Positions 3,705 through 48,942 are shown, counted from the first letter of the stretch. The stretch is DNA of 62,352 nucleotides from Minisyncoccota bacterium (GCA_028712605.1 JAQTPV010000001.1:1-62352); one strand, 5' to 3'. The notes: generated from the letters alone by a model not told the origin. Program-made: numbers and translations.

Positions 3705-5276
3705 TTATTGGCCGCCGCCACAACCACAGCCCTTACTTCCAGAAGGAACCACTAGATCAGCGCTATTGGTGTTGCTTGCAGCATTAGCAATATTGCCTCC
3801 GCTATTATTGCTGCTATTTGCGTCAACCACCTCCATTATGCCAGAAACCATGCCCATCCAGCAGCTGAATTTGTATTTACCGGCTTTTGTTGGCGCTGTA
3901 AATTCTTTAACACTCACTTGGCCGGGCGTTAAAGGGATATTGCCGGAAAATAGCCCTTGCGCAATAACTGCGTTAGTGCAACCACTGGTGCCTACGTCCT
4001 CAATCTCCCATCTCACTGGAAGGCCGGCCCTGATTTTAAAGTAATTTGGGCTGTAGCCAGAAGAGGAGGCTTTCATTTTGATGACCTGTTTCCCATCAAC
4101 GATAGGTGGCAAGTCTTTCTCGTTAGTATTACCCCCTATATTACTGCCGTTATTGGAATTATTAGTCACATTGCCGCCATTATTATTTGGTCTATCAATG
4201 CTGTTGCCTGAAACGACTGCTGGAGAACTCAAGGCCAAATCGTTAAAACTTGGTAGGCCTAAAACATTCAACTGATTATTAGCGTTAAATAAAGCGAAAA
4301 ATAAAACCAAGAACCCTGCCGCCTTCAAAAAGCGAGTGGCCACAGCTTGATTGCTAACTAATTTTAAGCTGGATAAGCCGATACCTAATAAAACTGGGGC
4401 TGTGCCTAAGGCGAAAGCCAACATAATTAATCCTCCCGAAAGCCAGCCGCCAGAGATCAAAGCCAAGCCTTGAGCAGTAATTGTGAAACCGCAAGGCAAA
4501 AAGAAAGTGGCCGCACCCAAAACAAACGGCATATATTTGCCCTGAAAGTTTTTTTCATCAGCCACGTAGCGCGTCAAAAACTTGGGCATGCCGATTTGAA
4601 AACGGCGTAAAGATTTAACTCCCAGCATCTGCAAGGCCAATAAAACCATTAAAACGGATACAGCTAAAATGAGTAGAGCCGAAAAACCCAAAGTTATCTG
4701 CAACTTACTGCCAATCATTCCCAAGATCGCCCCTAAAACAAAATAAGATACCAAACGGCCGATATTGAACATCAAATGCGGCTGAAACCTTTTAACGGCT
4801 GAAGACTCTTTAGCATAAACTTCAGACCATTGCTTGGCCATAGACAGCACCAACCCACCCACTAAAGCCGCACAAGTGGAAAGGCCGGCCAAAACACCAA
4901 ATAAGAAAAAGGCCGGTAAAGAGGAAGCTGAATTTAATTGCACTAACGAAGAAAAGCCCGTTCTATTCAATAATAAAAACCCCAGCATAATTATGGCGGC
5001 TATCACCAAGGCCCATAAAGAGTCTCGAGCCCCCAAGCCTCCAAATTCCTTTGTCGGCTTATCAGAAAAGATATAGCCTTGCTTCTTAAAAATCTTATTC
5101 AAGTCCTCATCGCTGGGTCTCTCGCCTTCGTAATTAATTAACACCTCACCCTTGCCGTTAGACGCTTCTACTGACTTTATATTGCCCCCCTCCAGCAACG
5201 TTTTTTCTATTAACAGCTCGCAAGAAGCGCAGTGAGTGCCCTTAACGTAATAAGTGTGTTGTTTTATTTGACTCAT
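3705..5276 (-). CDS. Three-domain fusion: HMA metal-binding domain, TauE/SafE-DsbD-like polytopic membrane domain, C-terminal cupredoxin-like domain
   Basis: [15 protein letters not shown] (HMA). About 8 hydrophobic helices including [13 protein letters not shown]. Asn/Gly/Ser-rich linkers. C-terminal [18 protein letters not shown] (cupredoxin_1-like C..M.M pattern). The tail ends GCGCGGGQ. Confidence 0.8.
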
Positions 5277-17500: not shown

Positions 17501-18667
17501 TTAAATATTAACGACTTTTAAATTTTTTAAAGCTTCTTTAATTAATTTTGCACTCTTGAGGTTCTTTTCCTCATTTTTAACTTCAGCTAAATCGGCCTTG
17601 GTCTCGGGAAATTGCGGCAAAAATCGAGAGCAACAATCCTGATGCTGCACAATGGAAACCTCATAAGTTCCTATCTCTTGGGCTTTAGCGATAATCTCTT
17701 GCTTATCAAATCCGATTAAGGGCCTTAAAACAAGCAAGGAGCTGGCTTCGGCAATGGCTGTAATATTGGGTAAAGTTTGAGAGGCTACCTGCCCGATACT
17801 TTCACCGGTAATCAAAACTTCAGCCTGCTCGGCTTGAGCAATCTTTTGAGCAATTTTAAGCATTAGTCTCCGATATAAAATTACCCTCAAATCCGCTTTC
17901 GTTTTTAGTAAAACCTCTTTTTGAATATCAGCAAAGGGCACTAAATAAACCGCAGCTTGTCCTTGAAACTTTTTCAAGACACTCGCTAAATCGCTCACCT
18001 TAGCAATAGAGGCTTGGTCAGTATACGGAAAACTATGAAAGTGCAAAAATATCACTTCTACCCCTCTTTTCATGGCGTAATAACTTGCCACTGGTGAATC
18101 AATCCCACCCGATAAAAGACAGACGGCCTTCCCACTCACCCCAACAGGCAGCCCGCCTAAGCCAATTATTTTCGCAGTGCCTAAAAAAGCCTCTTGATCA
18201 GTTATCTCAATCATTAAAACGACATCAGCACTTTCTAAATCTACTTCTTTTTTCAAACTTTCAGCAATATAGGCCCCGACTTGTTCATTAATCTCCTGCG
18301 AGGTTAGAGGAAACCCTTTATTGGCCCTCTTGGTTCTGACACAAAAGGTTTCAAAATCCAGATGAGCCAAAATCCCGCCAGCTGTTTTTTTAATCAGCTC
18401 CAAATCAAGCGGACAAGCCCAAGCTAAATAGAAATAAGCTAAACCAAAAACTTTTTTTAAGGGCTTTTCTGCCTTTTCAGCCTCTGCTGCATCATTGAAC
18501 TTAATCAAAATTCTGCCATAAAGGCGCCTTACTAATTGAAAAACGACCCCGTTGGTTTTCAGGGCTTTTTTAATATTCTCCACCAACTTCTCTTCAAACA
18601 TCTTTCTGTTCCCCCCCTTTAAGGCTATCTCTCCATAATGGCAAACTATGTACATAAGAAAAGGCAA
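17501..18667 (-). CDS. thiI: tRNA 4-thiouridine(8) synthase ThiI (no rhodanese domain)
   Basis: YGEIALKGGNRKMFE N-terminus, THUMP region, PP-loop SGGIDSPVA. Confidence 0.9.
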   Translation of the reverse strand: MPFLMYIVCHYGEIALKGGNRKMFEEKLVENIKKALKTNGVVFQLVRRLYGRILIKFNDAAEAEKAEKPLKKVFGLAYFYLAWACPLDLELIKKTAGGILAHLDFETFCVRTKRANKGFPLTSQEINEQVGAYIAESLKKEVDLESADVVLMIEITDQEAFLGTAKIIGLGGLPVGVSGKAVCLLSGGIDSPVASYYAMKRGVEVIFLHFHSFPYTDQASIAKVSDLASVLKKFQGQAAVYLVPFADIQKEVLLKTKADLRVILYRRLMLKIAQKIAQAEQAEVLITGESIGQVASQTLPNITAIAEASSLLVLRPLIGFDKQEIIAKAQEIGTYEVSIVQHQDCCSRFLPQFPETKADLAEVKNEEKNLKSAKLIKEALKNLKVVNI

Positions 18668-18678
18668 AATAAGACAAG

Positions 18679-18803
18679 GAAATTGTTTTTGCGAAGCATC
18701 CGCAGGCGAGTGGGCAAGGTTCCCGCCAAAGGCGGGAGAACGAGCCGAGGACTAAGCGAGCTCGCGCGCTGGGCGAGCGAGCGGCTCCGCAAAAACAATT
18801 TTC
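18679..18803. repeat. GC-rich structured element, copy 1 (15-bp closing stem plus ~95-nt GC-rich core)
   Basis: GAAATTGTTTTTGCG ... CGCAAAAACAATTTTC encloses a core homologous to 24282-24372, including the shared hairpin TCCCGCC-AAA-GGCGGGA. It fills the iorB-thiI intercistronic gap. Its GC content is visibly far above the surroundings. Confidence 0.6.
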
Positions 18804-18813
18804 GAGTCTATGT

Positions 18814-19383
18814 TTATGTTTTTGACAAATGCAATGCTTTAAGGTTTAGCTCCCAAAATTTTTCAGGCATTGTTTTTTTAATCGCCTCCTCCAAGCTTTT
18901 CATTGGCAATGGTAAATATTTTTTTCTAACAGCGTACCCAAGCAAATAAATGCCTGAAACCACTTCGTTACCCAACTTTTTCTGACAAATCTCTGAAGCT
19001 GGTATCACAAAAACCTTTTTACTGACATCAGCAAGCCTTTGTTTGATCTCGTCAAGGCCTACATCAACAGCTAATGTGGGTGTTTGATATTTGTTAATTA
19101 AAAATATGGATTTCTTGGAAGCAAATTGAGCACCATTCAATACCTCTTGCTGTTCTAAGGCAATGATTAAATTCGCCTGTCCTTTAGGCACCATCGGCGA
19201 AAAAACTTGCTCGCCAAATCTAATATAAACCTCCACCGACCCTCCCCTTTGCGACAAGCCATGCAATTCTGAAGTTTTAACATCAAAGCCTTCATCAAAG
19301 GCTGCCTGCGATATAATCTTAAGCAAAGTTACCAATCCCTGACCGCCCACTCCAGATATCACAATATTAAATGTTTTATCCAT
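18814..19383 (-). CDS. iorB: Indolepyruvate/2-oxoacid:ferredoxin oxidoreductase subunit beta (gamma-domain type)
   Basis: ISGVGGQGLVT...ELHGLSQRGGSV matches the pyruvate/ketoisovalerate oxidoreductase catalytic-domain pattern. Follows iorA. Confidence 0.8.
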   Translation of the reverse strand: MDKTFNIVISGVGGQGLVTLLKIISQAAFDEGFDVKTSELHGLSQRGGSVEVYIRFGEQVFSPMVPKGQANLIIALEQQEVLNGAQFASKKSIFLINKYQTPTLAVDVGLDEIKQRLADVSKKVFVIPASEICQKKLGNEVVSGIYLLGYAVRKKYLPLPMKSLEEAIKKTMPEKFWELNLKALHLSKT

Positions 19384-19391
19384 GGTTTAAA

Positions 19392-21071
19392 TTATTGTTT
19401 TTGCCTTTTCTCTAACAAGGCGCAAATGCGCTTGGCAATAATAACAGAAATTTCGTTTTTGGGATAATATTCTTGGATGCTTGTGACTAACTCATCAAAA
19501 CCGTCAACGGGATCAACGATTTTAATATTCTTAACACCCAAGGCCCGGGCCACTTCCTCAATTTTTATTTCAGGAGCCGCATCGGTTTCTGCAGCCTTAC
19601 CCATACCCGGGTTAGGCTGGTGACCAGTCATGGCGGTAATACGATTATCTACGATAATGGCCAGCAAATTTGATTGATTATAAACAGCGTTCAGTAGGGC
19701 TTCAATGCCTGAATGAAAAAACGTCCCATCGCCTATTAAAGTTACCACTTTTTGCTGTCCATTAGTAGCCTTGGCTATACCATGCCCGATACCAATGGAA
19801 GAACCCATACAAAACATATAATCATAGAGATTATGCGGCGGCAAAGCAGCAATCATATAACAACCAATGTCGCCTCCAAAAACCGTGTTTTCAGGCACCG
19901 CTTTCTTAATGGCGGCAAACACTCTCCAATAGGGACAAGTGGCCGCTCCAGAACAAAAACGAGGAAAATGTTTTACCCCCTCCACCATTGATTGGGGGAC
20001 CACATATTTTTTACGGACCACTGCGGCAACAGCCCCAGCTACTATTTCTGGATTCATCTCACCAGTTTCTGGTAGGATGTTTTTTCCATAAATTACCAAC
20101 TTTGGATTAGCTGATTTGGCTAAGGCTGCCACTTCTTTTTCTAAATAGGGGTCCAACTCCTCCACTATTAAAACTTTTTTTAAGGGCTTAATAAAATCTT
20201 TAATTTTCTGTTCGGGCAAGGGATAAAAAAATCCAAGCTTCAAAACCGGTACGTCCTTGCCCAGCATCCGCAGGGCCTCCAAAACATGTAAATAAGCGAC
20301 GCCTGAAGTTATAATCCCCGCTCTTTTTGTATTTGTATTAGTAGACAGGTCGCCATAGACATAGTTAACATCGCTATCCTCAACAAAAAGCTTGATTATT
20401 GAAATTTTATCCAGCAACTCCTGATGCATTTCCATCACCCTTGGGGGCATTGTCACGAAACGATGCTTATCCTTAATAAACTCGGCATCAGACGGCCTTA
20501 CCTTAGGTAAGCCACTGGTTTGAACAACGGCCTTTTGATGGGCCACCCTGGTAGTAGTTCTGACTATTACTGGCAGATGAAATCTTTTTGATATCTGAAA
20601 ACCCAGCCTTACGAATTCTAAGCATTCTTGGGCATCTGATGGTTCAAGCACTGGTATGTGCGATAGATAGGCAAAACCGCGAGAATTTTCTTCGGATTGA
20701 GCAGAGCTGTGACAAGACGGATCATCGGCCACAATGATTACTGTAGCCCCCTTAGAACCTGTATAGCCAAACGGTATCAGGCTTTCTAGGGCCACATTCA
20801 TGCCAAAATTCTTCATCGCCACCAAACACTTTAACCCAGAAAAGCTAGCGCCAATCGCAGCCTCCAAGGCCGTTTTTTCGTTAGTGGAGAATTCAAAATA
20901 AATGCTGTCATTATTTTTAGCAATTTCGGAAAACAAGTTGCCGATTTCTGAAGCGGGAGTGCCAGGATAAGTAGAAACAAACTGAACACCAGACTCCAAA
21001 GCCCCTCTGACAATGGCCTCATTGCCCATGAGGATAACTCTTTCATTTTGTAATCTGGTTAACTCTTGCAT
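19392..21071 (-). CDS. iorA: Indolepyruvate:ferredoxin oxidoreductase subunit alpha
   Basis: LMGNEAIVRGALESGVQFVSTYPGTPASEI N-terminus and TPP-binding GDGTFFHSG...NRITAMTGHQ. Confidence 0.85.
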   Translation of the reverse strand: MQELTRLQNERVILMGNEAIVRGALESGVQFVSTYPGTPASEIGNLFSEIAKNNDSIYFEFSTNEKTALEAAIGASFSGLKCLVAMKNFGMNVALESLIPFGYTGSKGATVIIVADDPSCHSSAQSEENSRGFAYLSHIPVLEPSDAQECLEFVRLGFQISKRFHLPVIVRTTTRVAHQKAVVQTSGLPKVRPSDAEFIKDKHRFVTMPPRVMEMHQELLDKISIIKLFVEDSDVNYVYGDLSTNTNTKRAGIITSGVAYLHVLEALRMLGKDVPVLKLGFFYPLPEQKIKDFIKPLKKVLIVEELDPYLEKEVAALAKSANPKLVIYGKNILPETGEMNPEIVAGAVAAVVRKKYVVPQSMVEGVKHFPRFCSGAATCPYWRVFAAIKKAVPENTVFGGDIGCYMIAALPPHNLYDYMFCMGSSIGIGHGIAKATNGQQKVVTLIGDGTFFHSGIEALLNAVYNQSNLLAIIVDNRITAMTGHQPNPGMGKAAETDAAPEIKIEEVARALGVKNIKIVDPVDGFDELVTSIQEYYPKNEISVIIAKRICALLEKRQKQ

Positions 21072-21104
21072 ATATAGCGCTATTTTACCACAATTTTCTC
21101 TTGA

Positions 21105-21166
21105 GATAAAATAACAAGGGTTATGGTTTTCTGCTGATCCCCCTTGCAGACAAACTCATAACCCTT
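21105..21166 (-). terminator. Terminator-like hairpin after the tRNA (10-bp outer stem, inner 5-bp stem, U-rich tail)
   Basis: Minus strand: AAGGGTTATG ... CATAACCCTT followed by GTTATTTTAT. It sits between the tRNA and the extended -10 (TGGTAAAAT) upstream of iorA. Confidence 0.5.
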
Positions 21167-21290
21167 TGTAGAGGAGATTATACTGGCAGAGGAAAGGCTG
21201 AATATTGGGTATCAATTATCAATAATCCCTAAAGCATAAAGCAATCCTCTGCCAGACCTTGAACGCCACTAAGCGGCGAGAAAGGCATGA

Positions 21291-21368
21291 TGGCCTCCTG
21301 GGCTGGAATTGAACCAGCTAACGACCCAGATTATGCATCTGGCGCTCTACCGTTGGCGCTACCAGGAG
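21291..21368 (-). tRNA. tRNA with CAU anticodon (Met or Ile2), non-canonical details
   Basis: Hand fold: acceptor CTCCTGG/CCAGGAG, discriminator G, encoded CCA, T arm GCTGG-TTCAATT-CCAGC, anticodon stem CCAGA/TCTGG. The loop reads TGCATAA, which puts G at position 33. The variable loop is 7 nt and the D stem has a G-A mismatch. Confidence 0.6.
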
Positions 21369-21461
21369 ACGTTGGAAGAACGAGCGAAGGCACAAATAGC
21401 ACCCTCGCTCCTTCCTCCAATGGTTCATATAATACTTAAAGTACATAATTTGTCAATGTTT

Positions 21462-22526
21462 CTACGAGATAATACCGCCGCCTAACAATTTATCACCTTC
21501 ATAAAAAACTACGGACTGTCCGCAAGTAACAGCACGTTGAGAATTGATAAAGATAATTTTATATCTTACCTTGCTCATTTTTTCTACAATAGTAGCTGAT
21601 GATAATCCGGAACGGTAGCGAACTTTAGCCTTAACTTTTAATGGTAATTTCGGTTCAACGCCTGAAATCCAATTAACATTTTCAGCGATTACTTCTTTCT
21701 GAAGTAAGTCTTTTTCGTTTTTACTAACCACCAAAGCATTCTTTTTTATGTCTTTGGCTATCACAAACCAAGGCCCGTCAGATAACCCAATCCCCTTTCT
21801 CTGACCAATCGTATAAAAACACAAGCCCTGATGTTCGCCAATCGCCTCACCATCCTTTGTTGTAATCTTGCCAACCTTACGAAGACCGCCTTTATAAGAT
21901 TGCAAAAAGCTATCAATATCCATATTTTGTAAGAAACACACATCATTAGACTCTGTTGTTTGAGCCGTAGGCAACCCCAATTTAGCTGCCACCTCTCTCA
22001 CCTCTCGCTTGCTTTTAAAATTACCTATGGGAAACAAAAGGCGTTTTAGCTGTCTCTGGTTTAACTTCCATAAAAAATAGCTTTGGTCTTTTTCTAAATT
22101 CTTAGCTTTCAATAATTTATAAATATTACCAGCCCCACCTTTTCTGACGTAATGGCCAGTAGCTAAAAAATCAGCTCCCAACCTCTTAGCCAGACCCAGC
22201 AATAAACCAAACTTAATTTCCTTGTTGCAAACTACACAGGGGTTAGGGGTTCTGCCCTTCTTTAGTTCCCCCAGAAAATAATTTACTACCCTTTTCTTAA
22301 ATTCGCGGCCCAAGTCCACAATTTGCAATGAAATACCCAAAACAGAAGCTACTTTTTTAAGCCTCTCCTGGGTTTCTCTTTGTATCTTCTTATTGGGATT
22401 AGCCGACCACAGTTTCATATGTACCCCAACCACTTCATAACCCTGTTGCTTGAGCAAGGCTGCAGCCACTGAACTGTCCACGCCACCCGATAAAGCCACT
22501 ACTACTTTTTGTCTTTTCGTTTCCAT
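21462..22526 (-). CDS. mnmA: tRNA 2-thiouridine(34) synthase MnmA
   Basis: PP-loop SGGVDSSVAA, NPCVVCN, and overall MnmA layout. Confidence 0.95.
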   Translation of the reverse strand: METKRQKVVVALSGGVDSSVAAALLKQQGYEVVGVHMKLWSANPNKKIQRETQERLKKVASVLGISLQIVDLGREFKKRVVNYFLGELKKGRTPNPCVVCNKEIKFGLLLGLAKRLGADFLATGHYVRKGGAGNIYKLLKAKNLEKDQSYFLWKLNQRQLKRLLFPIGNFKSKREVREVAAKLGLPTAQTTESNDVCFLQNMDIDSFLQSYKGGLRKVGKITTKDGEAIGEHQGLCFYTIGQRKGIGLSDGPWFVIAKDIKKNALVVSKNEKDLLQKEVIAENVNWISGVEPKLPLKVKAKVRYRSGLSSATIVEKMSKVRYKIIFINSQRAVTCGQSVVFYEGDKLLGGGIIS

Positions 22527-22611
22527 AACCTAAACCACTTTAATTTAACAAATTTAAGCGTTGTGATAAATAGTTTAGGGGGAACTCCTTGAGTTCCCCC
22601 TATAATAAACC

Positions 22612-23106
22612 TTACTGTAAAGATACGGCATTTGCCTTTGTTAATATGGGCTTTCTCTCAAGGGTAACCAGCATAGTCGATGCCTTACCTTCAATCCATA
22701 CCGATACTTGATGGGTATTGGTAAGATACACAATATGATCTTCTCCGCTCCAAGGGACAGCTAAGGCTATGCTTTTCTTAATTTTTGAGTCTTCCGATCC
22801 AATATTAATATATGGACTTCTGACGCCATTCCCCCTGAAAAAGAAGGTGTCTTTAGGAAAGGCCAGTTTATAAGAATATCCCTGATTTTCTCTTGCGAGA
22901 CTAACAAAAACCCGACGCTCGGCGTTCACAAGCCCATAACATACCTCTTCCTCTTTAGAGAGAGGAATAGCAAGAAATAAGACCTCCAGGCTATCGCCGC
23001 TTCTAAGGTTAATGGGATATTCAATCTGCGATGTCTGATGCAGACATCCGCAACAAAAAAGAACAGAAACCACGAAAAGCAAAGCTATTAATCTTAATGC
23101 GCCCAC
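22612..23106 (-). CDS. Hypothetical secreted protein or lipoprotein
   Basis: Signal peptide with the Cys cluster LFCCGC. No family recognised. Confidence 0.45.
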   Translation of the reverse strand: MGALRLIALLFVVSVLFCCGCLHQTSQIEYPINLRSGDSLEVLFLAIPLSKEEEVCYGLVNAERRVFVSLARENQGYSYKLAFPKDTFFFRGNGVRSPYINIGSEDSKIKKSIALAVPWSGEDHIVYLTNTHQVSVWIEGKASTMLVTLERKPILTKANAVSLQ

Positions 23107-23192
23107 ATTGCACCTCCATACATAACAAAAAGTAAATAGGTCGACGAATTACGATGTCATCAATTTAGCATAAAAATAATATAACTCAAGGT

Positions 23193-23221
23193 TTGCATTG
23201 TCTTAATAACCAAGTTAAAAT
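23193..23221 (+). promoter_or_regulatory. Sigma70-like promoter candidate (TTGCAT-17-TAAAAT)
   Basis: Hexamers at 23193-23198 and 23216-23221, 12 nt upstream of the ATG at 23233. Confidence 0.3.
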
Positions 23222-23232
23222 AAAAAAATAAT

Positions 23233-24234
23233 ATGAACAATAACAAACTCCAAAACTATTTTTTCTTGGCCATCTTGTTAATCAGCTTCAGCCTAACAGC
23301 TTGGCTGCTTTGGTCATACCTGGGCATTATCGTTTTAACGGCCACCTTAGCTATTATCTTCTCGCCGCTTTATAAGAAATTGTTAAGTCTTACCAAGAAA
23401 GAAAGCCTGTCTGCCTTTTTATCACTTTTGGTTGTAGTAATTATCGTTTTAACACCCTTAACTTTATTCAGCTTACAAGTTCTAAAAGAGGCTGGGGAGC
23501 TTTATCATCAAATTACCCAAGGGCCCGACAATTTATTAATGACCATCCAAGCTGAAATCCAAAAAATCTTTCCTGATTTCTCTATTAACTTTGATGCCTT
23601 TTTAAAGCAAATACTTAACTTATTAGTAAGCCACTTGGCCACCATCTTTTCCAGTATAGGCCAAATACTTATTAACCTAACCTTGGGCCTTTTGACGTTA
23701 TTTTATTTCTTCCGCGATGGTAAAAAATTAGAAAAAGCGCTAAGAGACTTAAGCCCCCTTAAAGAACAATACAATAATGATATTCTTAGCCAATTAAAAA
23801 TGGCCATTAATTCAATCGTCAAAGGATCTCTCTTAAGCGCTGTCCTGCACGGCATTTTAATTGGTCTGGGTTTCAAAATCTTTGGCCTTTCCAATGCTGC
23901 CTTATGGGGAACGGCTATTTTCTTCTCCACCCTAATACCAGGCATTGGCCTGGCGCTTGTCCTTATCCCTGCTGGCCTATTCCTCCTTTATACGGGAAAC
24001 GGCCTAGCGGCCTTTGGAGTATTAATTTGGGGCGTGATTGTTAACTTAGTCCTTGATTACCTGGTTACCCCACAAATCTTAAAAAGAAATATGAACATTC
24101 ACCCCCTCTTGGTTCTTTTGTCGGTTTTAGGGGGGCTAACAGTGTTTGGACCAATGGGCATCTTAATGGGTCCGCTAATCTTAAGCCTGTTAATCGCTTT
24201 ACTGAAAATATACCCTGAAATTGCTCTCACTTAA
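23233..24234 (+). CDS. AI-2E family transporter (PerM/UPF0118)
   Basis: About 8 TM helices. The FFRDGKKL and LIPGIG..L segments are typical of the family. Confidence 0.85.
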   Translation: MNNNKLQNYFFLAILLISFSLTAWLLWSYLGIIVLTATLAIIFSPLYKKLLSLTKKESLSAFLSLLVVVIIVLTPLTLFSLQVLKEAGELYHQITQGPDNLLMTIQAEIQKIFPDFSINFDAFLKQILNLLVSHLATIFSSIGQILINLTLGLLTLFYFFRDGKKLEKALRDLSPLKEQYNNDILSQLKMAINSIVKGSLLSAVLHGILIGLGFKIFGLSNAALWGTAIFFSTLIPGIGLALVLIPAGLFLLYTGNGLAAFGVLIWGVIVNLVLDYLVTPQILKRNMNIHPLLVLLSVLGGLTVFGPMGILMGPLILSLLIALLKIYPEIALT

Positions 24235-24263
24235 AAATAATAACATTACACACTAAGGGACGA

Positions 24264-24390
24264 GGGAAGTGTCTTCAAGGAACTTCTGCAGCCGAGCGGG
24301 CACGATTCCGCCTGCAGGCGGAGAGCGAGGCGAAGCCATGAGCAAGCTGCCTCGCTGGGGCAGCGCAGCGTATCCTTGAAAACACTTCCC
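24264..24390. repeat. GC-rich structured element, copy 2 (18-bp closing stem plus ~91-nt GC-rich core)
   Basis: GGGAAGTGTCTTCAAGGA ... TCCTTGAAAACACTTCCC (one mismatch) encloses a core homologous to 18694-18787. The shared hairpin is TCCGCC-TGCA-GGCGGA. Confidence 0.6.
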
Positions 24391-24438
24391 GAGTCCGCAA
24401 CGTAAAATGATTAACTGAATAAGTTACAAATAAAAACT

Positions 24439-24476
24439 AAAACCCACCCTCTCCAAAGTCAAAGAGGGTGGGTTTT
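24439..24476. terminator. Bidirectional intrinsic terminator between convergent genes
   Basis: AAAACCCACCCTCT-ccaaagtcaa-AGAGGGTGGGTTTT. Confidence 0.7.
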
Positions 24477-24481
24477 GGCGA

Positions 24482-24964
24482 TTATACAGCCTTGTCTTTT
24501 TTATATCTTTCCTCTATGGCCTGCTTCTCTTTTTGTAATTGCTGATGGCGGAGTTTAAGTTTTTCGGGAATCAGCTTATTGTTTTTATTGAAATAGTCGT
24601 GAATGGCTTCTATTAAAGCATCCCCAGCCAAAACTGAACAATGAATTTTAACAGGAGGCAAGCCTCCCAGTTTTTCAACAATTTCTTTCCTATCAAAATC
24701 TAAAGCTTCTGATATGGTTTTGCCTTTTACTAAATCAGTTAACATGCTGGATGAAGCGATGGCGGCTAAACAACCATAGGTTTCAAACTTAATGTCTTTA
24801 ATAATCTCCTGCCCTTTTTTATCTTTGGCTACCTTAATATAAAGACGCATTAAGTCGCCGCAAACAATATTGCCCACCTCACCAACACCATCAGGATTTT
24901 TCATTTTCCCGTAATTATGGGGCTTATTAAAATGTTGTAAAACCTCTTTGGAATATGGGATCAT
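24482..24964 (-). CDS. iscU: Fe-S cluster scaffold IscU/NifU-like with a charged C-terminal extension
   Basis: GNIVCGDLMRLY, YGCLAAIASSS and IHCSVLA are the three conserved Cys environments. Confidence 0.9.
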   Translation of the reverse strand: MIPYSKEVLQHFNKPHNYGKMKNPDGVGEVGNIVCGDLMRLYIKVAKDKKGQEIIKDIKFETYGCLAAIASSSMLTDLVKGKTISEALDFDRKEIVEKLGGLPPVKIHCSVLAGDALIEAIHDYFNKNNKLIPEKLKLRHQQLQKEKQAIEERYKKDKAV

Positions 24965-24967
24965 AAA

Positions 24968-26131
24968 TTACTTAACTGGAGAAATACCTCTTAATCTTTC
25001 AATAACCTTTGGTAAAACTTTAAGGACATAGGCTATCTCTTGTTCGGTAGTGTATTTACCTAAGGTAAACCTCACAGAACCATGGGCTTTTTCAGGGGAT
25101 AGCCCCAAAGCCATTAAGACGTGAGAAGGTTCAAGGCTGCCTGAAGCACAGGCTGAGCCAGTAGAAACAGCAATCCCCTCTTGGTCTAAGGCCATTAAAA
25201 TACTTTCCCCTTCAGCGCCAGCAAAGCTGATATTAGCATTATTGGGCAATCGCTGTTCCCTGGAGCCATTTAAAGAGGTTTTAGAGATGTTTTGCAATAT
25301 ATTGCTTATCAATTCGTCTCTCAATCTTTTAATGTTTTGAATTTCATTTTTTGTCTTTTGGATTTGTCCGACAGCCTCCCCCAGGCCAACAACCCCAGCG
25401 ACATTCTCCGTGCCAGACCTGTAACCATTCTCCTGATGGCCGCCATAAATCATTGGCTCAATGGCTATGCCTTTTCTAATGAATAAAACACCAGCCCCCT
25501 TAGGTCCGTAAATTTTATGCCCCGACAAAGTTAATAAATCTACTTGCAATTTCTGGACGTCACAACCCAGGTAATTGGCCGCCTGAACAGCGTCTGTATG
25601 AAAAATTATCTTTTGACTTTGCTTTTTTAACAAAGTACCAATTTCAGCTATGGGCTGAATAGTGCCGATTTCATTATTAGCGTACATCACAGAAACCAAA
25701 ACAGTATTGGGTTTAAGCACTTTTTCAATGTCACCAACCCGAACAATCCCCTCTGGACCAACCGATAAATAACTCACCTCCACCCCTTCTTTTTCCAATT
25801 GGCCAAAGGGCTCCAATACCGCTGAATGCTCAATGGCCGTGGTAATTATATGTGGCTTTAAGCCCTTCTTTTGCGCTATCTTTACTGCACCTAAAATAGC
25901 TAAGTTATCAGCTTCCGTGGCTGAACCACAAAAAATAATCTCATCGGGACGACAATTTAAAAAAACAGCTACTTGCTGTCTGGCTTTTTCTATAGCCTCC
26001 TTAGCCATCCTTCCAAAGCTATGCAATGACGAAGCATTGCCAAACTCCTTGTCCATATATGGCAGCATCGCCTTTTTTATTTCAGAGTCTAAAGGCGTTG
26101 TTGCTGCATAATCAAGATATACTTTTTTCAT
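24968..26131 (-). CDS. nifS: Cysteine desulfurase (NifS/IscS class)
   Basis: YLDYAATTP, PLP-Lys SGHKIYGPKG, active-site STGSACASG. Start moved to the Met at 26131 (alternative at 26137). Overlaps the upstream gene's end by about 20 nt. Confidence 0.95.
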   Translation of the reverse strand: MKKVYLDYAATTPLDSEIKKAMLPYMDKEFGNASSLHSFGRMAKEAIEKARQQVAVFLNCRPDEIIFCGSATEADNLAILGAVKIAQKKGLKPHIITTAIEHSAVLEPFGQLEKEGVEVSYLSVGPEGIVRVGDIEKVLKPNTVLVSVMYANNEIGTIQPIAEIGTLLKKQSQKIIFHTDAVQAANYLGCDVQKLQVDLLTLSGHKIYGPKGAGVLFIRKGIAIEPMIYGGHQENGYRSGTENVAGVVGLGEAVGQIQKTKNEIQNIKRLRDELISNILQNISKTSLNGSREQRLPNNANISFAGAEGESILMALDQEGIAVSTGSACASGSLEPSHVLMALGLSPEKAHGSVRFTLGKYTTEQEIAYVLKVLPKVIERLRGISPVK

Positions 26132-26642
26132 AAACATAAACACTTTTTTCTTGAGCGATGGGTTGCCAGTTAGGAAGTGGGAAAACAAACGCCACCACGC
26201 GAGCCCCGGGCTTTAATTCCCGTTGTAGCTTCTTAGCCAGGCCTTTCATAATGTAAGGAATACCATAAACAAAAACCACATCATAATCTGATAAGTCCTT
26301 CCACCAAAAGTTAGCCCAACAGGAAAAAACTTTATCAGCTAAACCTTTTTTCCGGGCTGCTTGCTGGGCCCTCACTGCCAAAAAAGGGTTGATTTCTAAT
26401 CCATAGGCCTTTGCCCCTCTTGCAGCTGCCGCCAACAATATCCTGCCATCACCTGAACCCAAGTCTACTATCTTTTGCTCTGGTTGCAAGACAATCATAC
26501 TGAAAGCCTTCTCTATCCTTTCTTGATGGGTAGGCACGTAGGGAGCTCCTCTTAAAATAGGAGCTAAAACAAACAGCATAAAAATAACAATGCCGATATC
26601 CAAAATAAGATTTAAGACCGAAATAATGACAATCGCTTCCAT
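26112..26642 (-). CDS. Class I SAM-dependent methyltransferase with an N-terminal TM anchor
   Basis: Motif I VDLGSGDGRILLAAA. Confidence 0.75.
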   Translation of the reverse strand: MEAIVIISVLNLILDIGIVIFMLFVLAPILRGAPYVPTHQERIEKAFSMIVLQPEQKIVDLGSGDGRILLAAAARGAKAYGLEINPFLAVRAQQAARKKGLADKVFSCWANFWWKDLSDYDVVFVYGIPYIMKGLAKKLQRELKPGARVVAFVFPLPNWQPIAQEKSVYVYEKSIS

Positions 26643-48614: not shown

Positions 48615-48942
48615 AATGAAAAATCCCGCTTCAAGCGAGATGGGGGTTAGATCATTTAAGTTATAGCTCAAATGGTTAACCTCTCTTTGCTCGAAGAGAA
48701 AATAATTAACAGCTGCTTAATTAATCGGACAATTAAGCTTAAGGGCATTCTGGCTTCCCTGAAAGTTTTGAAAACTGACAGGGTTACAGTTGCGGCACAG
48801 CTCCGGATTCACACCGGATTCCCCCTTCAAGTAGGAAGGACTATCAAGCAGTGTTAATTGTAACGATTCAAAAGATAAAGTCAAGCTATTGGTTGCCTCA
48901 TCAAAAAAGAGGTGGTACAATAAAAATATAATTACTAAAACT

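Follow-up and report, generated by a model that had tools for sequence, protein, structure and literature searches.

Introduction

Among the small repeats of bacteria, ERIC/IRU, Correia/NEMIS, BOX and RUP elements are short (130-200 bp), non-coding and multi-copy, and lie between genes in either orientation, and the repeat that we describe here is similar to them in all of these respects. It also resembles palindromic MITEs in forming a long hairpin, in decaying by deletion and nested insertion, and in having one subfamily with inverted ends and duplications. However, known MITEs conserve their inverted ends and are confined to a genus or family, whereas here the ends vary and it is a pseudoknotted tip of ~100 nt that is conserved across Patescibacteria and sediment lineages. 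REP/REPIN elements are likewise dispersed intergenic hairpins with a strand-specific structure and no adjacent enzyme gene, often several to an intergenic region, but REPs are only 20-40 nt long, have a GTAG head and are species-specific, whereas our repeat has no GTAG, is much larger, has a core found across phyla and carries a tip with a complex three-way or pseudoknotted structure. Insertion sequences of the IS66 family have inverted repeats of 20-30 bp that start GTAAGCG, with 8-bp direct repeats (PMC11946415), one such end being GTAAGCGTCCGG... (PMC12888890). A 200-bp subfamily of our repeat has ends (GTAAGCATCC...) that resemble the IS66 inverted repeats, yet it starts GTAAGCA and its commonest duplications are 9 bp and not the 8 bp of IS66; moreover, the copies from which we started are without such ends, and no IS66 transposase was found nearby in the retrieved loci. 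In concept the repeat is also like eukaryotic retrozymes and other such non-autonomous elements with a small conserved ribozyme, being a non-coding mobile element in which a folded nucleic-acid module is the most conserved part, but it has no hammerhead, HDV, twister or other known ribozyme core, and its duplications and inverted ends indicate DNA transposition, not retrotransposition. What distinguishes it from MITEs, REPINs and IS66 derivatives is the combination of a cross-phylum pseudoknotted tip, fast-evolving ends and a modular association with other cores. The small repeats of reduced-genome candidate-phyla bacteria are almost unexplored.

Results

Two diverged copies of one hairpin element

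The window, by which we mean the whole stretch of 62,352 nt that was analysed, is a complete contig of a Candidatus Pacebacteria MAG with an overall GC content of 0.41. It holds two hairpin elements of 137-138 nt, which together with their neighbours are laid out as follows.

17501-18655, - strand: thiI
18672-18809, + strand: copy 1, entire hairpin element with AGAC...GTCT ends, 138 nt
18679-18693, + strand: copy 1, 5' arm of the closing stem (GAAATTGTTTTTGCG), in perfect 15-bp pairing with 18789-18803
18688-18793, + strand: copy 1, conserved core (covariance model R1, 86.5 bits, E = 1e-27, filters off)
18699-18714, + strand: copy 1, short helix P2, UCC 18699-18701 with GGG 18712-18714, from family pair counts
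18705-18711, + strand: copy 1, 5' strand of the pseudoknot (GGCGAGU), enclosed by P2
18720-18738, + strand: copy 1, hairpin A, UUCCCGCC-AAA-GGCGGGAG; UUCC/GGAG base conserved, tip variable
18740-18746, + strand: copy 1, 3' strand of the pseudoknot (ACGAGCC), pairing with 18705-18711; tandem G.A mid-helix
18756-18782, + strand: copy 1, stem B with conserved loop GCGCUGG at 18766-18772; all 11 pairs covary in the family
18788-18803, + strand: copy 1, 3' arm of the closing stem (CGCAAAAACAATTTTC)
18814-19383, - strand: iorB-like POR subunit gene
23233-24234, + strand: AI-2E family transporter gene, upstream of copy 2
24259-24395, + strand: copy 2, entire hairpin element (GACGAGGG...CCCGAGTC)
24274-24380, + strand: copy 2, conserved core (covariance model R1, 71 bits)
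24291-24297 and 24325-24331, + strand: copy 2, pseudoknot strands GCCGAGC/GCGAGGC, spanning hairpin A (24306-24323)
24342-24369, + strand: copy 2, stem B with loop UCGCUGG at 24352-24358
24439-24476: canonical bidirectional terminator after copy 2, shared with the convergent nifU gene

The first-pass annotation had singled out copy 1 as a GC-rich segment closed by a strong stem and had judged its core, by eye, to be about two thirds identical to that of copy 2. Both points stand: the GC content is 0.67 in copy 1 (18700-18799) and 0.64 in copy 2 (24300-24399), the 15-bp pairing is perfect, and the cores, each matched by R1, are 63% identical; moreover, the conserved blocks and the shared hairpin that had been picked out between them are conserved throughout the family. 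However, its statement that the two closing stems have no sequence in common is wrong. Past GAAATTGTTTTTGCG/CGCAAAAACAATTTTC the helix of copy 1 extends outward through a G.A/A.G step into GAC/GTC (18673-18675 with 18806-18808), giving a stem base, GAC-AA-GG / C-GA-GTC, that can be aligned with copy 2, and the closing stems of both copies align as GACRAGGRAA.TGT ... AAAACA.TT..CGAGTC with compensatory changes, so that they are part of the element itself. The proposal that a cassette had inserted into existing palindromes or terminator loops is unsupported for the same reason, as the closing stems are homologous between the two copies and with other members, and we found no 'empty chassis' of outer arms without cargo. 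A TTTCTTT duplication around an inner element was also considered, and is possible yet inconsistent across copies.

Both copies fold far better than shuffled sequences. The + strand of copy 1 reaches -59.2 kcal/mol (z = -4.0, with 0 of 200 shuffles as good) and copy 2 reaches -60.7 kcal/mol (z = -3.8); over both copies and either strand the z-scores run from -3.8 to -5.3. Automatic minimum-free-energy folding was discarded as a guide to the element boundaries, as it over-extended the hairpins. Copy 1 is 78% identical to a copy in another sample, and the two window copies differ from each other as much as from copies in other phyla, and we infer that both segments belong to one mobile family, as old copies that have since diverged. 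A search of the window with nhmmer and with R1 (filters off) gave no third copy, the next-best R1 match scoring 8 bits; the annotation's two-copy family is thus correct inside the window and far too small overall, there being ~100 members on 93 contigs.

The setting of the window copies

Copy 1 occupies 138 of the 158 nt between the stop of the iorB-like gene (18814) and the start of thiI (18655), and its folding strand is antisense to the probable iorAB-thiI operon. Transcripts of the AI-2E transporter gene would carry copy 2 in their 3' UTR, in the sense that folds, and the sole likely local effect of either copy would be a very stable hairpin in the transcript. Around both copies lies a sulfur-trafficking and tRNA-thiolation cluster (17501-26188), with thiI, an mnmA-like tRNA methyltransferase gene, nifU and a class-V aminotransferase gene of the nifS/iscS-like kind. 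This location, together with the great stability of both hairpins on either strand, could suggest a terminator or cis-regulatory element of the host that serves specifically the sulfur-relay genes thiI, mnmA, nifU and nifS. We consider this most improbable: no neighbour gene is common to the ~100 members of the family, the two copies stand in opposite senses to the flanking transcription, neither was called in a terminator scan of 18400-24700, and a separate canonical terminator follows copy 2. The sulfur-cluster location of both copies is probably coincidental, the family being without gene association. A cis-regulatory leader or riboswitch was rejected on similar grounds, i.e. no recurrent neighbour, mixed orientation, and host promoters situated beyond the element and directed outward.

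Among ThiI relatives the nearest share only 60% identity, and there is no record of the iorB-like protein elsewhere. Between the two copies the window also has a 390-nt gap (21072-21461) from the mnmA-like gene to iorA, with GC 0.54 at 21300-21399 and no Rfam match; an 11/12 promoter match on the - strand (21456-21429) would give iorA a leader of ~350 nt. The only Rfam matches at gathering level in the window are a cobalamin riboswitch aptamer (48723-48864, - strand, 44.9 bits) and a tRNA gene (652-722, + strand).

A large family in uncultivated bacteria

A copy count beyond the window had been proposed with the first-pass annotation, and among the loci retrieved nhmmer gave 98 members, spread over 93 sources, namely the window and 92 public loci. 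The loci came from two pattern scans. With the pattern GCAGNCGAGNGGGCANGNTTCC, applied to one genome per species, we obtained 43 loci of which about half were true homologues, and these came from Spechtbacterales, two Saccharibacteria, two Aminicenantes, three MAGs labelled 'Eubacteriales' and two unclassified bacteria, the highest number of copies in one MAG being 4. With a second pattern, in which the outer thirds (5' and 3') were free to vary, we found at least 120 stretches in metagenomes. Covariance model R1 gave 103 matches, including second copies in L007, L141 and L003, and several loci of 8-14 kb hold two copies. The retrieval patterns fixed GGGCA.G.TTCC and GA.CGAG.CGA.G, and conservation is overstated at those positions; however, CAUCCGGAGGCGAGC, the loop CUCGCUGGGG and GCGGGCUGACG were left free by the patterns and are strongly conserved, and the conservation of the family is therefore not a pattern artefact.

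In Rfam 15 neither window copy has a match at E <= 10, 17 related loci have none at gathering thresholds, and the best family member gives only noise (<=15 bits against gathering scores of 55-100), which bears out the first impression that the core is no recognised RNA family. The consensus has no blastn match in plasmid and phage records, a pattern scan of viral contigs gave 8 matches, all apparently due to chance in GC-rich coding DNA, and a literature search with core strings and related topics found no published description of the repeat. It is a large, so far undescribed family in uncultivated bacteria, absent from Rfam.

The taxonomic labels of the MAGs may be unreliable, as near-identical copies are labelled 'Aminicenantes' and 'Eubacteriales'. 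Copies in L013-L015 and L028 ('Aminicenantes') are closely similar, flanking modules included, to those in L011, L012, L002, L022, L026 and L036 ('Eubacteriales'), and such similarity under different phylum labels points to unreliable taxonomy, mis-binning or recent horizontal transfer.

Traces of mobility, and modular subfamilies

Similar to MITEs, the repeat is short and non-coding (137-138 nt in the window, 200 nt in a sediment subfamily). A small ORF or toxin gene was rejected, the single 11-codon ATG...TAA frame on the + strand being non-conserved, with AAG in copy 1 and ACG in copy 2 in place of the ATG. Its copies are dispersed in unrelated contexts without common flanks (2 in the window, ~100 in the retrieved loci). 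The sediment subfamily has a unit of exactly 200 bp with inverted ends of ~20 nt (GTAAGCATCCTTATTTCCGTGAT, starting GTAAGCATCC), and at six independent loci (L140, L107, L060, L110, L146 and L170) perfect 9-bp target duplications lie at the exact ends of the 200-bp unit. Further loci of this subfamily have 8-bp duplications (L138, L088) or 8/9 matches (L130, L149). By chance alone, a perfect 9-mer would be expected at a fixed boundary with a probability of 4e-6 per locus, and the 9-bp duplications are thus direct evidence that the GTAAGCATCC-ended subfamily has transposed.

The window copies and other Patescibacteria-type copies are different. They have no target-site duplication, and while the window copies have inverted arms, the outermost GACRAGG / CGAGTC keeps a conserved G.A/A.G mismatch, because of which one end differs from the other when they are read as double-stranded DNA; no Patescibacteria-type copy, the window copies included, has a classical perfect inverted repeat. 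With neither duplication nor perfect inverted repeat, it is their dispersal, and solely this, that points to mobility of the Patescibacteria-type copies. Terminal inverted repeats had been noted as absent from the window copies, and here the arms are indeed imperfect; as a statement about the repeat it does not hold, given the 20-nt inverted ends and 9-bp duplications of the related subfamily. Decayed copies also occur, with internal deletions in L004 and L152, foreign insertions in L012 and L022, and a large insertion in hairpin A of L158. No autonomous partner element or transposase was seen in the retrieved loci.

Other subfamilies carry different arms, and in two of them the core and a second, unrelated module lie under common outer arms. 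In L021 (3036-3205), L058 (416-560) and L158 (8291-8451) this second conserved module (…CCATCCGAAGCCCATAGTGGAGGGTGGGAGGGTCTTGGCGAGGATGG…) is enclosed by the core's outer arms GCAT.TCC…CCGTGAT / ATCACGG…GGA.ATGC; it adjoins the core element in some loci, is inserted within hairpin A of the core in L158, and has no Rfam match (L021, L058). Another subfamily (L011, L013-L015, L028, L052, L056, L081, L087, L097 and L101) forms a repeat unit of ~400 nt, made up of an upstream module of ~170 nt between inverted 18-mers (AGCCAYAYCTGAATTTC), the core hairpin, and a third 18-mer in direct orientation. In Saprospiraceae (L005 at 4541-4590, L009, L040 at two sites, and L042) we also observed a repeated hairpin-terminator, CAGGCGAGG-GGGCATGGTTCC-CCTCGCCTG-T6, of which 21 of 22 nt equal the 5' block of the core and which is preceded by a conserved sequence of ~45 nt. 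With only 8.6 bits from the covariance model these hairpins were rejected as family members, and the likeness could be chance or a captured fragment.

Taken together, we think it on balance probable that the window segments are members of a non-autonomous mobile repeat, MITE- or REPIN-like, built around a strand-specific folded module. That the segment might be a small mobile element had been one of the two explanations offered at the outset, and the dispersed copies, the decayed copies and the target duplications of one subfamily all speak for it.

A conserved, strand-specific fold with a pseudoknot

The fold was tested on two alignments, A2 with 48 non-redundant members and A4 with 96 distinct model-aligned members. 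It consists of a closing stem whose length varies, a further closing helix inside it, a helix of 3 bp (UCC/GGG), a pseudoknot, hairpin A and stem B. The pseudoknot is of the H-type, GGCGAGC:GCGAGCC, with a tandem (sheared) G.A/A.G step; in hairpin A the base, UUCC/GGAG, is conserved and the tip is free and tolerates large insertions; and stem B has 11 bp, every one of them covarying, with an NCGCUGG loop on top. Across A2 and A4, 87-90% of cells are paired, as compared with 31-57% when the partners are slid by 1-3 columns, and changes on both sides occur in 32 of 42 pairs (A2) and 25 of 32 pairs (A4); none of 500 shuffles matched the observed values of pairing and covariation. At the central pair of the pseudoknot 82 members have G-C, 4 have C-G and 1 has A-U. 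Copy 1 has U-A at a position where most members have C-G, and copy 2 has the covarying pair in its compensated C-G version. The claim of a structured non-coding core is thus borne out, as it is conserved and its helices covary. A second pairing that had been suggested, CCGC/GCGG, did not survive: its fourth pair forms in just 37% of members, and other helices account better for this segment. We also dismissed a pairing between loop B (CGCU) and AGCG or GGCG, which finds no support where the partners vary.

The motif CGAG occurs 5-7 times per element, usually in CGAG/CGAG mini-helices with sheared G.A pairs, one of which also forms the base of the closing stem in both window copies. The arms evolve fast, from 15-20 bp in Patescibacteria up to the 200-bp unit of the sediment lineages, and are less conserved than the ~100-nt tip module, which is kept across very different lineages. 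In the strand test we counted 191 G.U against 30 A.C pairs, an excess that comes mostly from three conserved wobble positions, the ratio elsewhere being roughly 32 to 18; this favours the fold belonging to the window + strand.

These features bear on a different reading, in which a structured RNA (a small ribozyme, or a protein-binding or guide-like RNA) is the functional unit, carried along or spread by mobile hairpins and made through read-through or weak internal promoters. The pseudoknot, which is of the H-type and covaries, the sheared G.A pairs in tandem and the invariance of certain U.G wobbles (UG in 90 of 93 members at the base of hairpin A, and in 84 at P2) would fit an RNA, as would the strong conservation of the unpaired loop NCGCUGG and of the junction GAGGAAUAAG at positions that the search patterns left free, the higher conservation of the core than of the arms across lineages, and the sense orientation of copy 2 in a 3' UTR. 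GNRA and UNCG tetraloops are typical of structured RNAs; here, however, the tips of hairpin A are mostly triloops (GAA, GCA, GUA, GGA, AAA). No Rfam ribozyme model matches at E <= 10, and decayed copies are common, which both count against the RNA.

Two known ribozymes were compared directly. The strings GGGCAUGGUUCC and CCUCGCUGG resemble parts of the HDV ribozyme. HDV-like ribozymes form a nested double pseudoknot with the strand order P1-P2-P3-P3'-P1'-P4-P4'-P2'. The order that covariation supports here, P1-P2-PK-P2'-hpA-PK'-stemB-P1', is a different topology. The hammerhead core consists of unpaired CUGAUGA and GAAA joining three stems; in our family CUGAUGAG...CGAA occurs in one subfamily only, CUGA is paired to UCAG, and there is no third stem.

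Orientation, promoters and the competing readings

No neighbour gene recurs across the ~100 members, the largest neighbour cluster comprising 4 loci. Relative to the upstream gene the element has the same orientation in 29 cases and the opposite one in 50, and relative to the downstream gene 45 and 38, respectively; between co-directional genes the antisense orientation is commoner (22 vs 10). In 63 flanks we found promoter-like sites (at least 10/12 matches) reading outward 14 + 12 times and inward 2 + 0 times, the -35 box of the outward promoters typically lying 13-18 nt past the element end, and in many cases the element is found after a terminator and ahead of the next promoter. This suggests that insertion is targeted to, or that copies are selectively retained at, sites just upstream of host promoters. 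Strong sigma70-type promoters stand beyond the ends in L140 (TTGACA-17-TATAAT, 12/12), L138, L130, L124, L088, L105, L016, L069 and others, and two of the outward promoters drive tRNA genes. The outward reading, the antisense bias and the position between terminator and promoter all argue against a transcribed RNA as the functional unit, a reading that we regard as possible but not probable. The structured RNA or ribozyme of the first-pass annotation accordingly keeps its structure and loses ground as to its being a transcript, through the direction of the promoters, the gene-independent orientation and the many copies in untranscribed spacers.

The same observations could instead fit a fold that acts as single-stranded DNA, on the model of REP/REPIN-RAYT, IS200/IS605 ends and integron attC sites: it would be the recognition or cleavage substrate of a strand-specific HUH-type transposase or recombinase, with the stem-B loop as the nick or binding site. 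The fold is strand-specific in elements that have no promoter, the conserved loop on a covarying stem resembles Rep/relaxase nick-site hairpins, the copies are dispersed and unlinked to an adjacent enzyme gene as REPs are, and Patescibacteria-type copies have no target duplication, as expected of HUH elements. Moreover, GNA triloops with a closing C-G pair have a marked stability in DNA. However, the inverted ends and 9-bp duplications of one subfamily are the hallmark of DDE transposases, which work on double-stranded DNA, the flanks showed no gene for RAYT, TnpA or an integrase, a pseudoknot is unusual in DNA substrates, and the ends have neither the REP GTAG nor the attC RYYYAAC/GTTRRRY cores. 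A function as single-stranded DNA is in our view quite unlikely. Integron attC sites as such were rejected, the ends being GACRAGG/CGAGTC or GTAAGC/GCTTAC, with duplications in one subfamily and no regular cassette arrays seen.

Discussion

Of these readings the non-autonomous mobile repeat is the one that we prefer. The elements would encode nothing and have no promoter of their own, and an enzyme acting in trans would copy them to new intergenic sites, as the sequence traces show for the GTAAGCATCC-ended subfamily and as may hold by extension for the rest. The folded module would serve the element's own propagation or persistence, possibly as a recognition structure in single-stranded nucleic acid, be it read-through RNA or ssDNA, and is probably not a regulator of neighbouring host genes. 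DDE-type cut-and-paste, which the 9-bp duplications imply, needs the ends only, and gives no reason for the core to be better conserved than the arms. At present we can but tentatively propose, and hold it to be rather doubtful, that the ~100-nt module is a new functional RNA class, perhaps a self-cleaving or self-processing ribozyme, or else an RNA or ssDNA handle that recruits an enzyme for a new kind of mobilisation.

The family is abundant, with at least 120 metagenome stretches, and its conservation is the reverse of that of ordinary MITEs in that it is the tip, not the ends, that is kept. Should the core be an RNA, it would be a new structured RNA class, possibly catalytic or protein-recruiting, and if it acts as ssDNA, it would belong to a mobilisation system that has so far gone unrecognised. 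Either way, the covariance model is ready for annotating these repeats, so that they are not mistaken for gene-specific regulators, and the repeat can serve as a marker of insertion hot spots just upstream of promoters.
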